DNA of 39,635 nucleotides from a virus, in the IMG/VR virus record IMGVR_UViG_3300045988_045810, positions 1 through 39,635 of that record. One strand, 5' to 3'. Each line of letters begins with the position of its first letter. The first letter of the stretch is position 1. Shown here piece by piece: positions 14,262 to 32,815 of this stretch. The notes beneath the pieces are model-generated. The model saw only the letters and a list, made by a program, of their open reading frames with translations. It searched no databases and was not told where the DNA came from. The translations under genes and the position numbers were made by a program.

Positions 14262-14462
14262 TTATTCGGTCTTGTGTTTGCGTGGCCTGCCTCCGCCGAC
14301 GCCGCGTCCTGGGCGCTGCGCGTTCCATTGGTCGATGGTGTCGGGGAGCCAGCCGCGCGTGCGGCCGATGGTTACGTCCGGCTCGGGCAGGTCGTAGGAG
14401 GCGGCGTTGGCGACGCCGAGGCGTTCGGAGACCTGTTTGATGCCGAGGTATTCAGTCGTCAT
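14262..14462 (-). CDS. Small HTH DNA-binding protein, excisionase/AlpA-like (candidate Xis)
   Basis: 66 aa, MTTEYLGIKQVSERLGV..., with a basic tail. AGGAGGG SD. Lies in an operon divergent from the integrase. Confidence 0.6.
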   Translation of the reverse strand: MTTEYLGIKQVSERLGVANAASYDLPEPDVTIGRTRGWLPDTIDQWNAQRPGRGVGGGRPRKHKTE

Positions 14463-14616
14463 TGTCCCTCCTGTCCCTGATGAGCGTGGCGATGCTCCAG
14501 ATTCCCGCCGCGAGGCCGAACAGTCCGGCCTGCCATGCTTTCCCGGCGCAGCCGAGCGAGAGCGATGTCAGGCCGCATACGATGCCGCATACGGCGAACA
14601 GTGTGCTTGTCTTCAT
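14452..14616 (-). CDS. 54-aa two-TM membrane protein
   Basis: MKTSTLFAVCGIVCGLTSLSLGCAGKAWQAGLFGLAAGIWSIATLIRDRRDNDD. High GC3. Overlaps the HTH start by 11 nt. Below the ORF-track cutoff. Confidence 0.55.
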   Translation of the reverse strand: MKTSTLFAVCGIVCGLTSLSLGCAGKAWQAGLFGLAAGIWSIATLIRDRRDNDD

Positions 14617-14643
14617 GATGGGTCATGAAATAGGATGGAACCG

Positions 14644-14678
14644 GAGGGTTCCGGGCAGTAGGAGTGCTCGGAACCCTC
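14644..14678. promoter_or_regulatory. 10-bp perfect inverted repeat (GAGGGTTCCG / CGGAACCCTC) between the two small membrane ORFs
   Basis: Seen directly, with a 15-nt loop. It starts 4 nt after the 35-aa ORF stop on the minus-strand transcript. Confidence 0.5.
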
Positions 14679-14681
14679 TTG

Positions 14682-14789
14682 TCATCTGCCGTGCCTAGGC
14701 GGCTTTCTGAGCGAGATGACCAGCGCCGCCAGTGCGATGATGTTGCTTGTCACCGAGCTGATGGCGTTTACGATGTCCGTCCATTTCAT
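14682..14789 (-). CDS. 35-aa single-TM peptide
   Basis: GGAAAGGAGGTGAAC precedes the ATG. MKWTDIVNAISSVTSNIIALAALVISLRKPPRHGR. Confidence 0.55.
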   Translation of the reverse strand: MKWTDIVNAISSVTSNIIALAALVISLRKPPRHGR

Positions 14790-14808
14790 GTTCACCTCCT
14801 TTCCTTTG

Positions 14809-14921: not shown

Positions 14922-16091
14922 ATGGCCTACACAATCCGCCAATACCAGACGAAAGCCGGAAAAAGATACGAAGTCAGATACCGCAAGCCGGACGGCAGCA
15001 CGACCGGCAAACGTGGCTTCCGCCGCAAGATGGACGCGGATGCGTGGGGCGCAGCCAATGTGACCACCGCGAAAAGCGTCGGAGCCTACATCGACCCACA
15101 GGCCGGAAGAAGACTCGTGGAGGACTTCTGGGAGCCGTGGCTGGCCGCCAAGAAGACCAAGGCGAAGCCAAGCTACATCAAGTCGCTGGAAGACGCTTGG
15201 CGCGTGCATGTGGAGCCGCAGTGGGGTATGAGGGAGATGCAGTCAATCACGCGCGACGAAGTGCAGCGGTGGGTCACCGATCTGGCAGGACGACGCAGTG
15301 CGTCGGTGACGATTCGCGCCGAGAATCTGCTTCGCAGCCTCATGGAGAGGGCAAAGGCCGATCGGTGCATCCACGACAATCCGTGCGATGGAATCGAGCT
15401 GCCGCGCAAGCAGGTGCGGAAGCATGTCTATCTCTCGGCTGACGAATTGTCTCGTGTGGCGATGCAGTGCGGGTGGCGTGAGCCGATCGTGCTGACCTTG
15501 GGCTTGTGCGGAATGGGGTGGAGTGCGCTTGTGGAGCTCCGTGTCGAGGATGATGACCTGCAACGGTGCAGGCTGCATATATATAGGAGCATCACGCGGC
15601 TTTCCAGCCGACTGGTGGAGACGGACCCGAAGACCCATGATGGGCGTTCGGTGATGTTCCCCCTGGTGTTGCGTCCACTGCTCGCCAGGCAATGCGAGGG
15701 GCGCAGGCCGTCCGATTTCCTTTTCACCGCTCCCGGCGAACCTTTGGACGAGCCGATGGGAAACGGCTGGAATCCGACGCGAAGCGATGGATGGTTCGCG
15801 GTGGCTCTTCGTCGCGCGGGCGTGGACCGTGGCCACATGACGATTCATGATCTGCGGCATACGGCCGCTAGTCTCATGGTGCAGTCCGGCGCTAACGTCA
15901 AGACCGTGCAAAGGCAGCTGGGGCACAAGAGCGCCGCCATGACATTGGACGTTTACGCCGATCTCTTCGATGATGATCTGGACGAGTTGTCGGAGAGGAT
16001 GGGTGGTTTGCTTTTTTCGCAGAATGTGGGCAAAATGTGGGCAAACGTGACGCAAGGTGTCGATGGAACCGTTGAAACGGTTTGTGTCTGA
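14922..16091 (+). CDS. int: Tyrosine integrase
   Basis: 389 aa. C-terminal HDLRHTAASLMVQSGANVKTVQRQLGHKSAAMTLDVYADLF contains the R/H-x-x-R/Y catalytic pattern. attP lies immediately downstream. Confidence 0.9.
   Translation: MAYTIRQYQTKAGKRYEVRYRKPDGSTTGKRGFRRKMDADAWGAANVTTAKSVGAYIDPQAGRRLVEDFWEPWLAAKKTKAKPSYIKSLEDAWRVHVEPQWGMREMQSITRDEVQRWVTDLAGRRSASVTIRAENLLRSLMERAKADRCIHDNPCDGIELPRKQVRKHVYLSADELSRVAMQCGWREPIVLTLGLCGMGWSALVELRVEDDDLQRCRLHIYRSITRLSSRLVETDPKTHDGRSVMFPLVLRPLLARQCEGRRPSDFLFTAPGEPLDEPMGNGWNPTRSDGWFAVALRRAGVDRGHMTIHDLRHTAASLMVQSGANVKTVQRQLGHKSAAMTLDVYADLFDDDLDELSERMGGLLFSQNVGKMWANVTQGVDGTVETVCV
16026..16043 (+). repeat. 18-bp direct repeat GTGGGCAAAATGTGGGCA, left copy (candidate arm-type integrase site)
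   Basis: Identical to 16236-16253. Contains an internal TGTGGGCA doublet. Confidence 0.8.
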
Positions 16092-16128
16092 GGCTTTTCG
16101 CCGGTGGGTTCGAGTCCCGCTGGAGGCA
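16092..16128 (+). other. attP core: 3' portion of a tRNA gene (variable-arm hairpin, T arm, acceptor 3' strand, A73)
   Basis: GGCTTTTCGCC hairpin, T arm GTGGG-TTCGAGT-CCCGC, then TGGAGGC-A. No matching 5' half lies upstream. Overlaps the integrase stop region. Confidence 0.65.
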
Positions 16129-17072: not shown

Positions 17073-17867
17073 ATGAAGAAACTGATTTACCTCGTGCTAT
17101 CCGTACTGTGCGCAATCTCCGGCATCTACGGCATCTACGACACCATCACCACGCCGCAGGGTGATCTGGTCACAAGCATCATTGCGATTCTGCTCCTCGC
17201 ATTCCTCGCATGGCTTTTCATGCATCTCTTCCTCACACCTGAGCCACGCCATAAGCATCAAGCGGAGAATACAGCTGAACCGTCTCAGGAAGCCCCATCG
17301 GACGCCACGGCAACGCAAACGGCAGAGACGGCCGACACGGAGCGTGGAGACGTCGCGGAAGCCGATTACGACGATTACGTGGCCATCGACATCGAGACCA
17401 CGGGATTAGACAGAAGCGCTCGAATCATCGAGCTAGGAGCCGTGAGAATCAGGCATGGACGCAAAGTCGCGTCATTCAGCCAGCTCGTCAACCCGCAGAT
17501 TCCGATACCGGCCAAGGTCACGCAGATCACCGGCATCACCGACCGGGACGTCAAAGGCAAACCCACCATCGACAAAGCGCTACCCAAGTTCTACGCTTTC
17601 TGTGGGCGTGACACTTGGATAGGCCACAATATCCGACGCTTCGACATTCCGGTGATCGCCAGGGAGGCGCAGAGGGTCGGCGCCGGAATGCCGGACGTGA
17701 GCTTCTACGACACGATGGAATTATCCCAGGCATTGCTGCCGCAGCTTGACCACCATCGCGTGGTGGACCTCATTCGATATTTCGGCATCGCCAAGACCGA
17801 GCGGCATCGCGCCGCCGACGATGCTGCACAGACAGCGCAAATCTTCGAGCATTTGAAGCAGATATAA
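17073..17867 (+). CDS. Membrane-anchored DnaQ/epsilon-like DEDDh 3'-5' exonuclease
   Basis: Two N-terminal TM segments (LIYLVLSVLCAISGIYGIY, VTSIIAILLLAFLAWLFMHLFL) and an acidic linker. Exo I AIDIETTG, Exo II HNIRRFDIPV, Exo III HRAADDAAQTAQIF. Confidence 0.75.
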   Translation: MKKLIYLVLSVLCAISGIYGIYDTITTPQGDLVTSIIAILLLAFLAWLFMHLFLTPEPRHKHQAENTAEPSQEAPSDATATQTAETADTERGDVAEADYDDYVAIDIETTGLDRSARIIELGAVRIRHGRKVASFSQLVNPQIPIPAKVTQITGITDRDVKGKPTIDKALPKFYAFCGRDTWIGHNIRRFDIPVIAREAQRVGAGMPDVSFYDTMELSQALLPQLDHHRVVDLIRYFGIAKTERHRAADDAAQTAQIFEHLKQI

Positions 17868-28156: not shown

Positions 28157-28329
28157 CGCTTGACCCGCCACCGGACTTGTTGGAGATCGCCGAAGCCCTG
28201 GACGCGATGGCGAAACCACACGTGGGAAGCGGCTGGGCGAACACCAACTACACCGACCTGCCCTGCACCACGCCACGGCAGGAGGCAATCTGGATGGAAT
28301 TCAACGGCATCACAAGAGGGGAGGATTGA
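28150..28329 (+). CDS. Hypothetical protein
   Basis: Overlaps both neighbouring genes, same strand. Confidence 0.5.
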   Translation: MVTLDPPPDLLEIAEALDAMAKPHVGSGWANTNYTDLPCTTPRQEAIWMEFNGITRGED

Positions 28330-29120
28330 TGGCAAGGCGCGGTTACGTGCAATTGGCCAATGGCTTCTATCTCAACCGGAAGGTACGCCGGTTGCGTCGC
28401 ACCATGCCCTCTGCCGTCAGTGCGTTCGTCGTCATGCTTTCCTACTGCGGTGACAACCTCACGGACGGCTTCGTGGACTCGGACACGGCGGAATTCGTGC
28501 TCGACATCACCACGCAGGAGCTTGACGCTTTGCAGCAGGTCGGATTGATCGAGGCCGTGGATGGCGGCTATGTCATCCACGATTATCTCGAACATAATCG
28601 GAGCCGTCAGCAGGTGATGGCCAAGCGCAAGCGTGAGCATGACCGGTATTCTGCTGGCAGTCTGCCGGCAGAAATTGCGCAGACTGCCGGCAGAATCGAA
28701 ACAGAATCGGGACAAACACCAGAACACCAGAACACCAGAACCCAAAAGAAAGAGAAAGAAGAATATTCTTCTTCTTTCTCCAAAGAAATCGGGCTGAACG
28801 ACTTCGAGCTGGTCAGGGAGAAAGCCCACGCCAATGCCGCCATAATCCGCGATTACCCGAATCTCGACCTGTCAGACGCGTGGAACGCATTCTTAAGCCG
28901 ACATTATGGCGAAAACCGCACGATAGCCGACTGGACGCGCCTGTGGAAGGGCTGGTGCCAACGCAGAGCCAAAATGAGCGGCATACCACCCTCGAAACGC
29001 CACGTGCACACGTGGAAATGCTCTCACGTGCTCGAAGCGCTCGGACGCGACGAAGAAACAGCACAGGCAGACGAAAAGGCCTGCGAATTAGCCGACAGAC
29101 TCAACAAGGAGAAATCATGA
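28326..29120 (+). CDS. Putative replication initiator / replisome organiser (N-terminal winged-helix-like domain)
   Basis: 264 aa. N-terminal domain, then a low-complexity linker that carries the ori-like repeats, then a C-terminal domain. This matches the lambda O-type layout. Confidence 0.5.
   Translation: MMARRGYVQLANGFYLNRKVRRLRRTMPSAVSAFVVMLSYCGDNLTDGFVDSDTAEFVLDITTQELDALQQVGLIEAVDGGYVIHDYLEHNRSRQQVMAKRKREHDRYSAGSLPAEIAQTAGRIETESGQTPEHQNTRTQKKEKEEYSSSFSKEIGLNDFELVREKAHANAAIIRDYPNLDLSDAWNAFLSRHYGENRTIADWTRLWKGWCQRRAKMSGIPPSKRHVHTWKCSHVLEALGRDEETAQADEKACELADRLNKEKS
28662..28773. repeat. ori-like repeat cluster inside the replication gene
   Basis: CTGCCGGCAGAA twice (28662, 28684), CAGAATCG twice (28691, 28702) and CACCAGAA three times in tandem (28717-28740). 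These are followed by the AT-rich palindrome AAGAAGAATATTCTTCTT (28756-28773). Confidence 0.5.
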
Positions 29121-29272: not shown

Positions 29273-29418
29273 GAATCAAGAAAGTCCTCGAAGACATGAT
29301 CATCAAGTGGCATCAGGCCGGTTACGCGCTTGACGAGATCGCGCCGCTCGTGCCGCAGGTGCCGAAAGCCGAAATCGCCGCACTCATCCGCCAGCACGAC
29401 AAGGAGACCAGACTTTGA
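29269..29418 (+). CDS. Hypothetical 49-aa protein (HTH-like)
   Basis: ATGA overlap. WHQAGYALDEIAPLV. Confidence 0.5.
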   Translation: MRIKKVLEDMIIKWHQAGYALDEIAPLVPQVPKAEIAALIRQHDKETRL

Positions 29419-30167
29419 CCAACTGCCAGCACTGCCGGAAGCCAATGAAGCCGGTGGCCGCGAATCTGCTCTGCGCCAGCTGCCGAGAAAACTACTGGCA
29501 GCTGATCCGCCAGCTCGGACACGTCCAACTGCCCGCCCTGCGGAGCATCATGCTCCGACAGGCCCGCATCGGCACCCCAGCACACACGCCAAGCCGAGGC
29601 AACGCACCAATACCCATCGACACCCACGCTCAAGACCTCATCGCAGACAGCGAAGCATGGTTGGCGGAACAGGCGGGCAAAATACGCGCCGCATACGCTG
29701 GATACGACTGGCGGAAAGCGTGGTTCGCCATAATCAGCAACCGGCGCACCATCCTCGACATGAGCACTGCAGCAGACGATTACGCAGCCCTGGAACACAT
29801 CAGCCGACGCAACGAGACGGCCTTGACACCAGAAGAGGCAATGGTCATCATCGGCACATGCCCACAATGCGGCCACCAAGCCACCAGCACGCCACAGGCC
29901 GACGAATGGACATGCCCGCACTGCAAATGGCAAGGCGGAGTCCAAGCCATCAAAGCCACCCGCGACAACAAACTCTGGCAACTCGAATACACCGGAAAAC
30001 CAGTCGAAGTCGCAAGATACCTCTCCAAAATGGACATCCACTGCACAAGCGACCAGATCCGCCAATGGCTCACCAGAGGCAAACTCCACGCCACGCCGAC
30101 AAAACACAAAGGAGAGTACGTGTTCAACCTCGGAGAAATAACCGCCATGCTTGACTGTCACAATTAA
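29415..30167 (+). CDS. Zinc-ribbon plus C-terminal HTH protein (candidate late-gene regulator), TTG start
   Basis: CQHC...CASC and CPQC...CPHC pairs. C-terminal VEVARYLSKMDIHCTSDQIRQWL. Last gene before the late promoter. Confidence 0.55.
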   Translation: MTNCQHCRKPMKPVAANLLCASCRENYWQLIRQLGHVQLPALRSIMLRQARIGTPAHTPSRGNAPIPIDTHAQDLIADSEAWLAEQAGKIRAAYAGYDWRKAWFAIISNRRTILDMSTAADDYAALEHISRRNETALTPEEAMVIIGTCPQCGHQATSTPQADEWTCPHCKWQGGVQAIKATRDNKLWQLEYTGKPVEVARYLSKMDIHCTSDQIRQWLTRGKLHATPTKHKGEYVFNLGEITAMLDCHN

Positions 30168-30189
30168 AATGCTATACTGTCGTACAGTA
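30151..30189 (+). promoter_or_regulatory. Near-consensus promoter: TTGACT (30151-30156), 16 nt, TATACT (30173-30178), overlapped by the palindrome TACTGT-CGT-ACAGTA (30175-30189)
   Basis: Hexamers and spacer counted directly. Located upstream of the tRNA-like gene and the packaging operon. Confidence 0.6.
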
Positions 30190-30233
30190 GTAAAATGGTT
30201 CAGCCTGAAAGGGCTGGGCCATTATTCATATCA

Positions 30234-30388
30234 GCTTCGGTAGCTCAGTGGCAGAGCACGAGGGATAGCACAGATACCAGAGGACGGATACCAAACCGGC
30301 CATGGCTTCATGATTCTTTGCGAATGCCCGTGATCAGAGATAGTGCATCCCACACCATGCGCTGGTTCGACTCCAGCCCGAAGCACCA
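30234..30388 (+). tRNA. Aberrant tRNA-like gene: canonical acceptor, D and T arms plus an encoded CCA, but about 80 extra nt replace a recognisable anticodon arm
   Basis: GCTTCGG (30234-30240) pairs with CCGAAGC (30378-30384). D arm is GCTC-AGTGGCA-GAGC. T arm is GCTGG-TTCGACT-CCAGC. Then A-CCA at 30385-30388. I could not find an anticodon. Confidence 0.7.
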
Positions 30389-30403
30389 CAAGGCGGTGAC
30401 CAC

Positions 30404-30712
30404 ATGCCAGGAAGAACGCGCAAGACCAGCCGCCAATTCGAAAAAGACAAGGCCACATTCTTCACACAATGCAAGGCACAGCATGCAGGCTGCTGGTTGT
30501 GCGGCATGCCAATCGACTACAACGCAGTCAAGAACACCACAGATGACTCATTCAATCTCGATCACATGTTCCCGGTCAGCAAGCATCCCGAACTCCAATT
30601 CGACCCAGCAGGCTTCAAGCCGAGCCACACCAGCTGCAACCGCTTGAGAGGCAACCAAGATCCGCCAGCGCCAATCGGAACACTCTCAAGACAATGGATA
30701 ACAACAGCATGA
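30404..30712 (+). CDS. HNH endonuclease (packaging-associated type)
   Basis: CWLCG ... DHMFPVSKHPE ... SHTSCN matches the HNH motif. Immediately upstream of the terminase genes. Confidence 0.85.
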   Translation: MPGRTRKTSRQFEKDKATFFTQCKAQHAGCWLCGMPIDYNAVKNTTDDSFNLDHMFPVSKHPELQFDPAGFKPSHTSCNRLRGNQDPPAPIGTLSRQWITTA

Positions 30713-30852
30713 GCCCAACACGAGGGGTAGGGGCGGTGAAATCGTAAAACCAACGACAGAGCGCAAGACGTCCCGCGTGGTTGGTCTTCCTCTCCCCGAC
30801 AAGTGAAATTGTTGGCGGGTCGCGCGCGATGGCAGATTAGGGGGTGTTTTCG

Positions 30853-31191
30853 ATGAGTGCGAAGTTTCCGAGTCGGAATGTGGCGGAGGCGTTGGAGCGT
30901 TCGTTGAAGAACGCTGACCTCAAGGCTGTGAATTCTGCTGTTGTCGCTGCGGCTCGCGTGTTGGCTGAGCGTATCGATTATCTGACGTTCTCCGGTTTTG
31001 TCGATGAGAACGGCAAGCTCGACAACGTTTCGCTGCCGACGTTCCTCAAATATTGTCAGTCGCTTGGTTTGACGGTGGATGCTCCGGCTAAGGTTGGTCG
31101 TCCTGCGAAGCCGAAGGTTGAATCGAAGCCGGAGGCGCGTAAGAGCGACAAGGTTGTGCAGATGGAAGATTTCATGAAGCGTTTCGGCTAG
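30853..31191 (+). CDS. terS: Terminase small subunit
   Basis: Position between HNH and TerL. 112 aa with a basic C-terminal half. SD TAGGGGG. Confidence 0.65.
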   Translation: MSAKFPSRNVAEALERSLKNADLKAVNSAVVAAARVLAERIDYLTFSGFVDENGKLDNVSLPTFLKYCQSLGLTVDAPAKVGRPAKPKVESKPEARKSDKVVQMEDFMKRFG

Positions 31192-31201
31192 GAGGCGTTC
31201 G

Positions 31202-32815
31202 ATGGCGTCGGAAGATTTGAGTGTTTTCGGCGCCATTGATGATGAGAGGCACGGCGTGACACTGCCGCGTATCTTCACGCCGCCGTTGCGTCCGCTGACG
31301 AAGGAAACTTCGAATGGGTTCGCGGTGATCGCTTTCGCTGAAATCATGCTGCACGTGCATCTCTACCCGTGGCAGCAGTGGCTGCTTGTCCATGCGCTTG
31401 AATTACTTGAGGATGGCAGTTATCGCTTCCGCAAGGTCATCGTGCTTGTGGCCAGACAGAACGGCAAGACCACGCTGATGGGCGTGCTGGCCGCATGGTG
31501 GCTGTTCGTGGACTCCAACAAGCATCCCGACCGAGTGCCGCCCGTGAAGTTCCTCGTGGTCGGCGCAGCGCAGACATTGGACAATGCGAAGGGGCCGTAC
31601 AATCAGGTCAAGGAGTGGTGTAATCCTGCTCCGGCGACTGATGAGGAAGCGGATCTGGTGATTCCAGACCTCGCCGCGATGACGCAGAAATTCGTCAACA
31701 CGAACGGCGAGGAGGCGATCATCACCCGCTCGAAAGCCCGGTATATCGTCCGCGCGGATAAGAATATTCGCGCGAAGAGCGCTGCACGTGTGGTGTTTGA
31801 TGAGCTTCGTGAACAGCATAATGACGATGGCTGGAACGCTGTCTCGCAGACCACGAAGGCCGTGTGGAGTTCGCAATTGTGGGGCATCTCTAACGCTGGC
31901 GATTATCGGTCTGTGGCCTTGCGTAAGCAGGTGGACAAGGGCCGTAAGCTCGTGGACGCTTGGAAGCAGTATGTGGCTGATGGTGTGGATGCTGCCGAGG
32001 CTTTCGCCAATGGCGAGCAGGACGGGTCTTTCGGATATTTCGAGTGGAGCGCCCCTGACAAGTGTCCGGTTGATGATGCCGACGCGATTCGCCAGGCTAA
32101 CCCGTCACTCGGCTATGGTCCGATGACCGTGGCCAGTGTCCGAAGCGATATTGATGGCATGACCGAGGCCGCGTTCCGCACCGAAGTCTTGTGCCAGTGG
32201 GTAACGGCCGATATTACGCCCTATGTTAACCCGAAGCTTTGGGCGCATGGCACTGATAATGCGTCGTGCATCCCCGACGATAATCGCGTGGTGTTGGCCG
32301 TCGATACCAGCGCCGACAGGCAGACAACCTATGTCGCTGCCGCTGGCCTTCGTGCCGATGGTCTCCCGCATGTCGAGCTGATCGCCAGGCGCGACGGCAT
32401 GTTGTGGGTGCCGCATTTTCTTGACTTGCTTCGTGAGAGCTGGCCGAATGTCTGTGAGATTGCCGTGCAGTCGAAGGGTTGTCCGGCTGTCGATTTCATC
32501 GACCCGCTCACGGAAAAAGGCTGGAATGTGCATTTGATTGAGGGCTTCCGGCTTGGCGCGTGCTGTGGCCGTTTCCTTGACCGCGTGCGCGAGGGCAAGC
32601 TCCGTCACCTGCCCCAGCCTGCCATCGAACAGCAAGTGTCGGTGGCTGTCACAAGGCGTCTTGGCGAGGTCGAGGTGTGGGACCGCGCGAAGAGCGCCTT
32701 GCAGATCAGCGGCCTCATCGCCGAATCCGAGGCGCTATACGCGCTTGAGACCATGCAGGTCGAAGTGGAAACACCGAAATATTCGCCGAGCGTGACGCAT
32801 TTCGCCGTTGTCTGA
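31202..32815 (+). CDS. terL: Terminase large subunit
   Basis: 537 aa. Walker A-like VARQNGKTT. Located upstream of the portal. Confidence 0.9.
   Translation: MASEDLSVFGAIDDERHGVTLPRIFTPPLRPLTKETSNGFAVIAFAEIMLHVHLYPWQQWLLVHALELLEDGSYRFRKVIVLVARQNGKTTLMGVLAAWWLFVDSNKHPDRVPPVKFLVVGAAQTLDNAKGPYNQVKEWCNPAPATDEEADLVIPDLAAMTQKFVNTNGEEAIITRSKARYIVRADKNIRAKSAARVVFDELREQHNDDGWNAVSQTTKAVWSSQLWGISNAGDYRSVALRKQVDKGRKLVDAWKQYVADGVDAAEAFANGEQDGSFGYFEWSAPDKCPVDDADAIRQANPSLGYGPMTVASVRSDIDGMTEAAFRTEVLCQWVTADITPYVNPKLWAHGTDNASCIPDDNRVVLAVDTSADRQTTYVAAAGLRADGLPHVELIARRDGMLWVPHFLDLLRESWPNVCEIAVQSKGCPAVDFIDPLTEKGWNVHLIEGFRLGACCGRFLDRVREGKLRHLPQPAIEQQVSVAVTRRLGEVEVWDRAKSALQISGLIAESEALYALETMQVEVETPKYSPSVTHFAVV

Follow-up and report, generated by a model that had tools for sequence, protein, structure and literature searches.

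The window analysed here is the whole of IMG/VR record IMGVR_UViG_3300045988_045810 (39,635 nucleotides [nt]), a circularly permuted temperate siphovirus genome of 57.8% G+C in which a 155-nt element at 30234-30388, on the plus strand, lies between a promoter and the first late gene. The element has the acceptor, D and T arms of a transfer RNA (tRNA) and carries a branched domain where the anticodon arm would be. The locus is almost certainly a tRNA-derived non-coding RNA gene without earlier description, and comparison with its homologues shows a conserved, structured gene of this kind which, judging from its predicted fold, would be incapable of decoding as it stands. Its parts, with the segment that a tRNA finder treats as an intron, are as follows.

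30234..30388, plus strand: tRNA-like RNA gene from acceptor 5' strand to CCA, 155 nt (direct reading, minimum-free-energy fold, RNAalifold, 85 homologues)
30234..30257, plus strand: acceptor 5' strand (30234-30240), U8, A9 and D arm (direct reading)
30262..30271, plus strand: 5' strand of the long arm, with P1b GGGAT (30262-30266), bulged A30267 and P1a GCAC (30268-30271); pairs with 30343-30351 (covariation)
30267..30343, plus strand: 77-nt segment called an "intron" at 33/34 of a tRNA-Ala(UGC) by ARAGORN in intron mode; judged unlikely to be a real intron
30272..30281, plus strand: junction strand J1/2, AGATACCAGA; core ATACC kept in all subtypes (85-sequence alignment)
30282..30301, plus strand: hairpin P2, with GGACGG, variable loop ATACCAAA and CCGGCC (RNAalifold)
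30302..30331, plus strand: hairpin P3, with base ATGG (30302-30305) paired to CCGT (30328-30331) (covariation of the base)
30332..30342, plus strand: junction strand J3/1, GATCAGAGATA, with a conserved GAT...A-rich motif (85-sequence alignment)
30343..30351, plus strand: 3' strand of the long arm, GTGC (P1a) and ATCCC (P1b) (RNAalifold, covariation)
30352..30360, plus strand: nine-nt linker at the variable-loop position; 3-9 nt in other subtypes
30361..30388, plus strand: T arm GCTGG-TTCGACT-CCAGC, acceptor 3' strand CCGAAGC, discriminator A and CCA (direct reading)

The tRNA shell can be read directly. Acceptor strands GCTTCGG (30234-30240) and CCGAAGC (30378-30384) form seven of seven pairs, T8 and A9 stand directly 3' of the first strand, and the D arm GCTC-AGTGGCA-GAGC (30243-30257), the T arm (30361-30377), discriminator A30385 and an encoded CCA (30386-30388) follow in their usual places. 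An earlier account of this DNA, made from its letters alone and called here the sequence-only reading, had described intact acceptor, D and T arms with an encoded CCA, 103 nt between the D and T arms, and a structured domain in place of the anticodon arm. The arms and the 103-nt gap (30258-30360) are indeed there to be read, the CCA is encoded in most homologues, and the domain is borne out both by the RNAalifold consensus and by the minimum-free-energy fold, a cloverleaf with a long branched domain as its anticodon arm (-50.9 kcal/mol, z = -2.1). A 7-base-pair (bp) acceptor stem, a D arm with A14, G18G19 and A21, a T loop of the TTCGA type, a discriminator and CCA are all canonical tRNA features; a contiguous 5-bp anticodon stem with a 7-nt loop and a total length of about 72-95 nt are lacking. 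The last linker base (C30360) is positioned to pair with G15, as in tRNA, and the features of an RNase P substrate are present, namely coaxial acceptor and T stems (12 bp), G1, an elbow pair of the G19:C56 type and a 3' RCCA. Neither default ARAGORN, which found no tRNA or transfer-messenger RNA (tmRNA) gene anywhere in the window, nor Rfam 15, with no match at the gathering threshold, recognises the element; with E up to 10, Rfam gave nothing meaningful over 30100-30500, only a 13-bit partial match to tRNA-Sec. We found no description of this tRNA-like RNA in the literature searched, and large catalogues of unnamed candidate phage RNAs may include it (PMC10690425).

Eighty-five distinct variants of 145-162 nt, falling into four subtypes, were collected from Bifidobacterium prophages and human-gut viral contigs by nhmmer and pattern scans, the acceptor-strand part of the set being drawn from among the matches listed. 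A D arm and T loop separated by a gap of 85-115 nt matched 98 viral contigs, about 83 of which have the element; a pattern for the acceptor strand only found more contigs than this, among the matches listed, and the element is present in more than 150 viral contigs. Among GenBank phages there is a single copy, in a human-faecal contig; among species-representative genomes, the carriers are Bifidobacterium ruminantium DSM 6489 (contig NZ_JDTK01000023, L131:4075-4235) and one contig of a metagenome-assembled genome. In gut metagenomes, 70 loci match the insert-bearing pattern, 68 of them at full length, and some lie on contigs of 100-490 kilobases (kb), which indicates integrated prophages. The family is narrow yet abundant, belonging to temperate phages of the B. 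adolescentis/catenulatum/ruminantium group. Subtype A is that of the window; subtype B has a longer P3 loop; subtype C has T stem GTGGG/CCCAC and a shifted arm register; and subtype D is diverged, with acceptor GCTTCGA/ACGAAGC, T stem GCCGG/CCGGC and arm GGAAT-A-GCGC/CGC-ATTCC. The canonical shell is maintained across the 85 variants, with exceptions in the D type, where C55 (the T loop is mostly TCCGACT) and an A7.A66 mismatch occur. The D loop varies in length and sequence and keeps A14, GG (in 83 of 85) and A21, and the ACCA tail is encoded in 69 variants (81%). Variant lengths differ by amounts that are not multiples of three, so the overlapping open reading frame (ORF) at 30195-30647 is not a gene.

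According to the alignment, the insert is a three-way junction of about 70 nt, with a closing helix (P1) and two hairpins (P2 and P3) that adjoin without a linker; the two junction strands, each of about 10 nt, carry conserved motifs. For 41 close variants, the RNAalifold consensus comprises the acceptor stem, D arm, P1b (GGG/CCC), P1a (GCAC/GUGC), P2 (GG.CGG/CCG.CC), P3 and T arm. Covariation was counted in a MAFFT alignment of the 85 distinct variants, in which 90-92% of pair cells are standard, as against 28-40% after a shift of the 3' partners by 1-3 columns; with the same architecture in all 85 homologues, the structure lies far beyond chance. Changes in the T stem (UA:51, CG:21 and GC:12 at position 1; CG:72 and UA:12 at position 2) and in P1 (GC:62 and AU:21 in P1b; AU:64, GC:9 and 12 broken in P1a) are compensatory, and those in the base of P3, where AUGG and CCGU are paired in 99.7% of cells (UG:61, UA:22), go from wobble to Watson-Crick. 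Because the family is narrow, the independent substitution events are few, and we regard the covariation as supportive, not overwhelming.

The long helix that the sequence-only reading had drawn between GGGAU-A-GCAC and GUGC-AUCCC appears in both the minimum-free-energy fold and the RNAalifold consensus, and it covaries (G-C to A-U, and A-U to G-C); its helices are kept among homologues. A second helix of that reading fared worse: the hairpin CAUG-GCUU-CAUG (30301-30312) is missing from B- and D-type variants, and the pairing supported instead is AUGG with CCGU. The P3 register of the minimum-free-energy fold (GGCUUC/GAA.GCC) likewise fails in the D type, being 79.6% paired. The distal part of P3 (30306-30327) is variable and partly dispensable, its distal loop being deleted in one locus (L271). 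The P2 stem is 83% paired, with a single mismatch that sits elsewhere in A than in D types, and its loop varies in sequence and length. Hammerhead, k-turn, C/D-box and T-loop readings of the junction strands were considered by inspection, and none is consistent across subtypes.

ARAGORN in intron mode (-i) fits a tRNA-Ala(tgc), i(34,77), to precisely the bounds of the element, 30234-30388. On this account the 72-83-nt insert would be excised at 33/34 to leave a tRNA about 78 nt long whose anticodon would be UGC or, in D types, CGC. The sequence-only reading had maintained that no excision leaves a U33-type loop, and in this it was mistaken, since removal of 30267-30343 gives A-U-UGC-A-U. The same junction, applied uniformly, gives 66 of the 85 variants a 7-nt loop with U33, a purine at 37 and an NGC anticodon; the last base of the 5' "exon" is U and, in types A-C, that of the "intron" is G; and real tRNAs otherwise occupy the same genomic slot. 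Such an intron is nevertheless very unlikely. The other 19 variants yield a non-canonical loop (C37, C33 or a 6-nt loop), and the ARAGORN call shifts with subtype, from Ala-tgc to Thr-agt, Ala-agc (at 38/39), Ala-cgc, Asp-gtc or none. The supposed anticodon, A32/U33 and A37/U38 are paired strands of P1a and P1b, and this explains why the anticodon and loop ends are conserved. Pair 3:70 is U-A in 84 variants and C.A in one, so that the alanine identity element G3:U70 is absent. Inspection of the junctions found no bulge-helix-bulge motif: in place of the 3-4-3 arrangement, the 5' "junction" coincides with the lone bulged A and the 3' one is buried in the 4 bp of P1a, and no tRNA intron endonuclease of the archaeal/eukaryal type is known from bacteria. 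The earlier judgement that the insert is too short for a group I intron holds, for 72-83 nt is far below the length of any such intron (about 200 nt or more), and Rfam offered no intron or ribozyme match with E up to 10. The joined junction has no metagenome matches against 70 for the insert-bearing form, and the only short forms in viral contigs are two deletion derivatives (L316 and L347) that ARAGORN does not call as tRNAs. That the insert is a new kind of short intervening sequence, removed at 33/34 by itself or by an enzyme to give a UGC/CGC tRNA with unusual aminoacylation identity, is similarly improbable.

The genes and signals around the element, together with two landmarks from elsewhere in the window, are these.

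14922-16091: tyrosine integrase (family scan)
28326-29120: replication initiator (family scan)
29415..30167, plus strand: upstream gene p908, 250 amino acids (phrog_908), with two zinc ribbons and a C-terminal winged helix
30151..30178, plus strand: sigma-70-type promoter TTGACT, 16-nt spacer, TG-n-TATACT (extended -10); 10 of 12 matches, TG present
30195..30231, plus strand: leader hairpin ATGGTTCAGCC / GGCTGGGCCAT with loop TGAAAG, then U-rich tract TATTCATAT (terminator scan, covariation)
30404..30712, plus strand: HNH endonuclease gene (phrog_338), the first late gene
30844-31191: TerS, 3' of HNH
31202-32815: TerL (Terminase_6), 3' of TerS

The sequence-only reading was right to place the element between a near-consensus promoter and the HNH/terminase genes, and its distances are correct (last base of the -10 at 30178, first base of the element at 30234, and a gap of 15 nt from the CCA to the HNH start codon at 30404). 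The promoter is conserved, with CTTGACTGTCAC..TT.AAATGCTATACT essentially invariant across 76 distinct leaders. In these leaders a hairpin starts about 17-25 nt past the promoter, and the element begins 8-12 nt past the U-rich tract. Across 75 distinct leaders the hairpin is 97.9% paired, with U-A, C-G and U-G at one pair; hairpin and U tract together have the form of an intrinsic terminator, conserved with covariation, and the run of U is not continuous, reading UAUUCAUAU in the window and UUUUUCAU in many relatives. The element had been taken for the extreme 5' end of the late transcript, which does not hold, as the terminator-like hairpin (30195-30222) and its U-rich tract precede it. On its other side the element is co-oriented with the first late gene, always 15-35 nt upstream of it, and a scan of the interval between element and HNH found no terminator. 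In actinophage genomes, HNH homologues found by tblastn lie at the right end, just before cos. Ahead of HNH, a promoter and terminator in similar arrangement are found in Propionibacterium phage B3 and Arthrobacter phage Andrew, and neither these two nor LGCM-VI, all distant actinophages with a homologous HNH, has a tRNA-like element there.

The upstream gene belongs to a PHROGs family of unknown function (phrog_908). A Pfam search found no family for its product, only a sub-threshold match to the zinc ribbon of HypA, and sequence searches of NCBIfam and the Protein Data Bank were uninformative; its AlphaFold model is poor (predicted local distance difference test 58), with only the C-terminal winged helix-turn-helix confidently modelled. 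A p908 protein is annotated as "PhnA protein" in B. adolescentis and B. catenulatum. From its domains, the product is probably a DNA-binding regulator. By analogy, the leader resembles a late leader under antitermination control, of the lambda Q / PR'-tR' type, for which p908 would be a candidate regulator.

TerL reaches 90% identity or more with that of the window in 80 loci, 69 of which carry the element as a model-length match; since about 10% of phages with so similar a TerL are without it, the element is accessory, not core. A p908 of at least 62% identity lies directly upstream in 68 of these 69 loci, and the upstream flank of the remaining one (L204) is too short to tell; RNA subtypes A-D and p908 alleles recombine freely. 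Where the element is missing, the p908 present is only 26% identical, and most of these loci have a promoter of their own at the matching place, in several cases followed by a terminator-like hairpin. In two loci (L252 and L274), p908, promoter, hairpin and RNA are kept while the HNH/terminase genes downstream are of other types. Where the sequence-only reading had tied the element to the HNH/terminase operon, it is thus linked instead to the module of p908, promoter and terminator and to the slot that follows; coupling to the HNH gene was rejected for the same reason, and a packaging RNA (pRNA-like) was rejected in view of the element-less phages with nearly the same TerL.

The slot in element-less sister phages holds a tRNA-Trp(CCA) or tRNA-Ser(CGA), and its other occupants are toxin-antitoxin-like and small membrane-protein cassettes. 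It also holds a second, unrelated tRNA-like RNA of aberrant form, about 100 nt long (L169:1023-1122; L178, about 1049-1149). ARAGORN -i labels this RNA "tRNA-Pro(ggg)"; its anticodon loop has 9 nt (CUGGGAUAG), its extra arm is long and not the same in the two loci, and its T stem is weak. The L178 copy stands immediately 3' of a normal tRNA-Trp(CCA). From such comparisons the element is one of the alternative genes in a variable accessory slot where the late operon begins, a place otherwise taken by real tRNA genes.

Two kinds of protein-coding cassette in or near the slot may be recorded here. Within the slot, upstream of the tRNA-Trp in L217 and L221 (about 1000-1500), is an ORF with a likeness, recognised by eye from its translation, to RelE/ParE "addiction module killer" proteins, and it has a consensus-like promoter of its own (TTGACA...TACAAT). 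A cassette for small hydrophobic proteins, on the minus strand and with a stem-loop (GGAACCGGAGGGTTCC...), is found in the window at 14460-14790, near the lysis genes and integrase, and in L169-type phages directly upstream of HNH (L169:2000-2360); occurring at two sites, it behaves as a mobile module.

In topology the element resembles tmRNA (SsrA), in which the ends also form an acceptor with T arm and CCA, a long helix and structured domain stand at the place of the anticodon arm, and RNase P processes the transcript. Unlike tmRNA, it has no G3:U70 (3:70 is U-A), no conserved tag frame and no series of pseudoknots, has a full D arm, and measures 155 nt against about 350; neither default ARAGORN nor Rfam finds a tmRNA. 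A 21-codon frame does end at the conserved TGA of CGTGAT, but a tmRNA-like tag was rejected because indels between subtypes break that frame. In design the element resembles engineered tRNA scaffolds, which keep the acceptor, D and T arms and replace the anticodon stem-loop; the design of Ponchon and Dardel reportedly swaps in a foreign structured RNA, and the product is said to be processed by tRNA enzymes and stable in bacteria. The element differs in being natural, phage-encoded and conserved, and is known here from sequence. It shares its topology with tmRNA and its design with these scaffolds and is a member of neither class.

Other likenesses are more partial. Bacterial tRNA genes with group I introns are likewise sound tRNAs interrupted in the region of the anticodon loop, with the 5' junction after U, as here; the element differs in the size of its 72-83-nt insert and its unfit identity elements, and no intron-less alleles were found among its homologues. 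YrlA and other bacterial Y RNAs, some of them phage-encoded, are non-coding mimics of the tRNA elbow (D and T arms) that do not decode. YrlA, however, ends in a Ro-binding stem on the anticodon-stem side and its acceptor-like stem is closed by a loop, a permuted topology, whereas the ends of the element form the acceptor stem; Rfam gives no match, and no Ro/Rsr gene is present among the window genes scanned. In organelle tRNA punctuation and t-elements, and in the E. coli tufB co-transcript, tRNAs or tRNA-like structures define the ends of messenger RNAs (mRNAs) through RNase P and 3' processing; these are organellar or decoding tRNAs, and the element is a phage accessory with a conserved extra domain. 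Phage tRNAs for which a role against tRNA-targeting defences has been proposed are, like the element, tRNA-type genes in accessory loci, the known cases being decoding tRNAs with altered anticodon loops; by analogy, a non-cleavable tRNA body made late could soak up anticodon nucleases or CCA-end-modifying enzymes. As to small self-cleaving ribozymes (hammerhead, twister, pistol, hatchet, hepatitis delta virus-like), Rfam has no match over 30100-30500 with E up to 10, and on inspection the junctions, of about 10/0/11 nt, depart from the 7/3/1 of a hammerhead.

The closest relatives of the shell are phage tRNA-Phe(GAA) genes and a suppressor tRNA with anticodon CUA. The latter (L317, L328) has the acceptor stem, the anticodon stem GGGAU/AUCCU and a type-C T arm in common with the element, and its sequence makes it a possible relative of the ancestral tRNA. 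Acceptor GCTTCGR, however, is found in phage tRNAs of many isotypes, and a parent isotype of Phe(GAA) or CUA suppressor, as judged by likeness of the shell, is suggestive only. These sequences would fit an origin from a phage tRNA gene in which a junction module took the place of the anticodon loop. That the element is itself an attP remnant was rejected, for the 3' tRNA fragment next to the integrase has another acceptor strand (TGGAGGC) and lies 14 kb away. That fragment (GGTGGGTTCGAGTCCCGCTGGAGGCA, at 16100-16128) is attP-like and comes from a different tRNA; the tyrosine integrase gene ends shortly upstream of it, and it probably serves as the integration core. The gene that adjoins this attachment site, a frequent place of prophage-borne defence or moron genes, encodes a 264-amino-acid protein (17073-17867) with an RNase T / DEDDh exonuclease domain (Pfam PF00929, E 2.5e-35) that matches PADLOC "DEDDh" and the candidate defence family PDC-S48.

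Unrelated viral contigs (L028, L082, L010/L022/L078 and L081/L087) have the same D arm and T loop with inserts of 90-115 nt in tRNA shapes, including a short anticodon-like hairpin with a large extra arm in L028 and two hairpins in L082. Insert-bearing tRNA-like genes may thus be a wider phage phenomenon.

One could envision the element as a tRNA-derived, non-decoding RNA, built on a tRNA scaffold, that is processed like a tRNA from the late transcript and acts through binding, and we would put the chance of this being correct at about even. RNA polymerase would read through the leader hairpin late in infection and transcribe the element together with the late genes; host tRNA-maturation enzymes would then release it, as they would the tRNAs in the slot of sister phages, by an RNase P cut at G30234 and 3' trimming to the encoded CCA. 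The product would be a stable RNA of about 155 nt, in the manner of engineered tRNA scaffolds. Its branched arm would bar decoding and leave it to act by binding, most plausibly as a decoy or sponge for a protein that recognises the tRNA body, or by presenting the three-way junction, presumably its working surface, to a specific partner. Processing, stability and action in trans are our inferences. More narrowly, that it is a natural tRNA-scaffolded decoy that blocks a tRNA-targeting defence we think rather unlikely, and a decoy for tRNA-directed toxins or nucleases triggered late is an attractive idea unsupported by direct evidence. Several observations weigh against the proposal as a whole. 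All steps after transcription rest on inference, and no candidate binding partner for the RNA was identified. The encoded CCA is missing from 16 of 85 variants, and C at T-loop position 55 and the A.A at the seventh acceptor pair in D types indicate that constraint on the tRNA shell is not uniformly strict. The first gene, 15 nt after the CCA, would fit a purely cis role equally well. Finally, the element decays in some lineages, as is evident from the 74-nt forms in L316 and L347 (a deletion between CGGTC repeats), a copy without the P3 loop (L271:2623-2770), a degenerate D-type copy with a damaged D arm and truncated junction (L223, about 800-925) and a 24-nt remnant of the 3' end after a tRNA-Ser (L177, about 1056-1080).

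The main rival is that such a cis role is the whole of its function, the element being a processing or stabilising handle of the late mRNA like organelle tRNA punctuation and t-elements. A cut by RNase P at G30234 would detach the leader and its terminator hairpin, leaving the late mRNA with a paired, nuclease-resistant 5' end or with a defined 5' end before the HNH ribosome-binding site; the junction would contribute nothing beyond stability. Its constant orientation and its place 15-35 nt before the first late gene, with no intervening terminator, agree with this, as does the conserved promoter-terminator leader ahead of it; the presence of a different tRNA-like RNA and of real tRNAs at this position in sister phages suggests that tRNA-likeness there may be what matters. 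Phages B3 and Andrew, however, have the leader and HNH without any such element, in some close relatives (those with the L169-type cassette) the interval from the last upstream gene to HNH is free of one, and the element is dispensable. Nor would a handle explain why the junction strands and three-way junction are kept across about 35% sequence divergence, or why CCA, unneeded for a 5' handle, is encoded in 81% of variants. We therefore consider it possible but doubtful. If the element were instead a decaying phage tRNA gene with a neutral or selfish insertion, functionless now, then the deletions, CCA loss, T-loop and acceptor mismatches, outright loss in several lineages and narrow phylogenetic range of the family would be expected. 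However, the deeply diverged subtypes A and D keep every helix by compensatory changes; the motifs ATACC, CCATGG and GAT...A of the junction are kept while loops diverge freely; D-loop length variants retain their tertiary nucleotides; and full-length copies dominate (68 of 70 metagenome loci, and 69 of 80 TerL-relative loci at model length), which makes decay quite unlikely.

A part in the late-transcription switch, either as a modifier of RNA polymerase or terminator (put-like, or a Q-system accessory) or as a binding site for p908, would account for the close p908 allele found with the element in every locus with a captured upstream flank, and for its position immediately after promoter and terminator; on inspection, the conserved CCAUGG also resembles the 3' strand of the terminator. 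Yet an element downstream of the terminator could not act on it in cis on a first pass, free recombination has mixed RNA subtypes A-D with different p908 alleles, the complementarity at issue is a short palindrome, and the tRNA shell is left unexplained, so that we give this reading very little weight. The sequence-only reading had listed a processing handle, a decoy, an aminoacylatable mimic and a tRNA with an undescribed intervening sequence as possible roles; the present results lower the last two relative to the first two.

If the element is real and expressed as we propose, it would be a natural example of the tRNA scaffold, in which a virus uses the body of a tRNA as a processing and stability chassis for another RNA module. 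Default tRNA finders and Rfam miss such genes, and finders run in intron mode mislabel them as tRNA-Ala. The locus is in any case a clear example, in Bifidobacterium phages, of a late leader with promoter and terminator followed by an accessory tRNA slot. The abundance of the element in prophages of a major human-gut genus would make it an accessible system in which to ask about non-decoding tRNA mimics in phage-host conflict, whether as decoys for tRNA-directed toxins, as competitors of tRNA enzymes or as punctuation of the late transcript.

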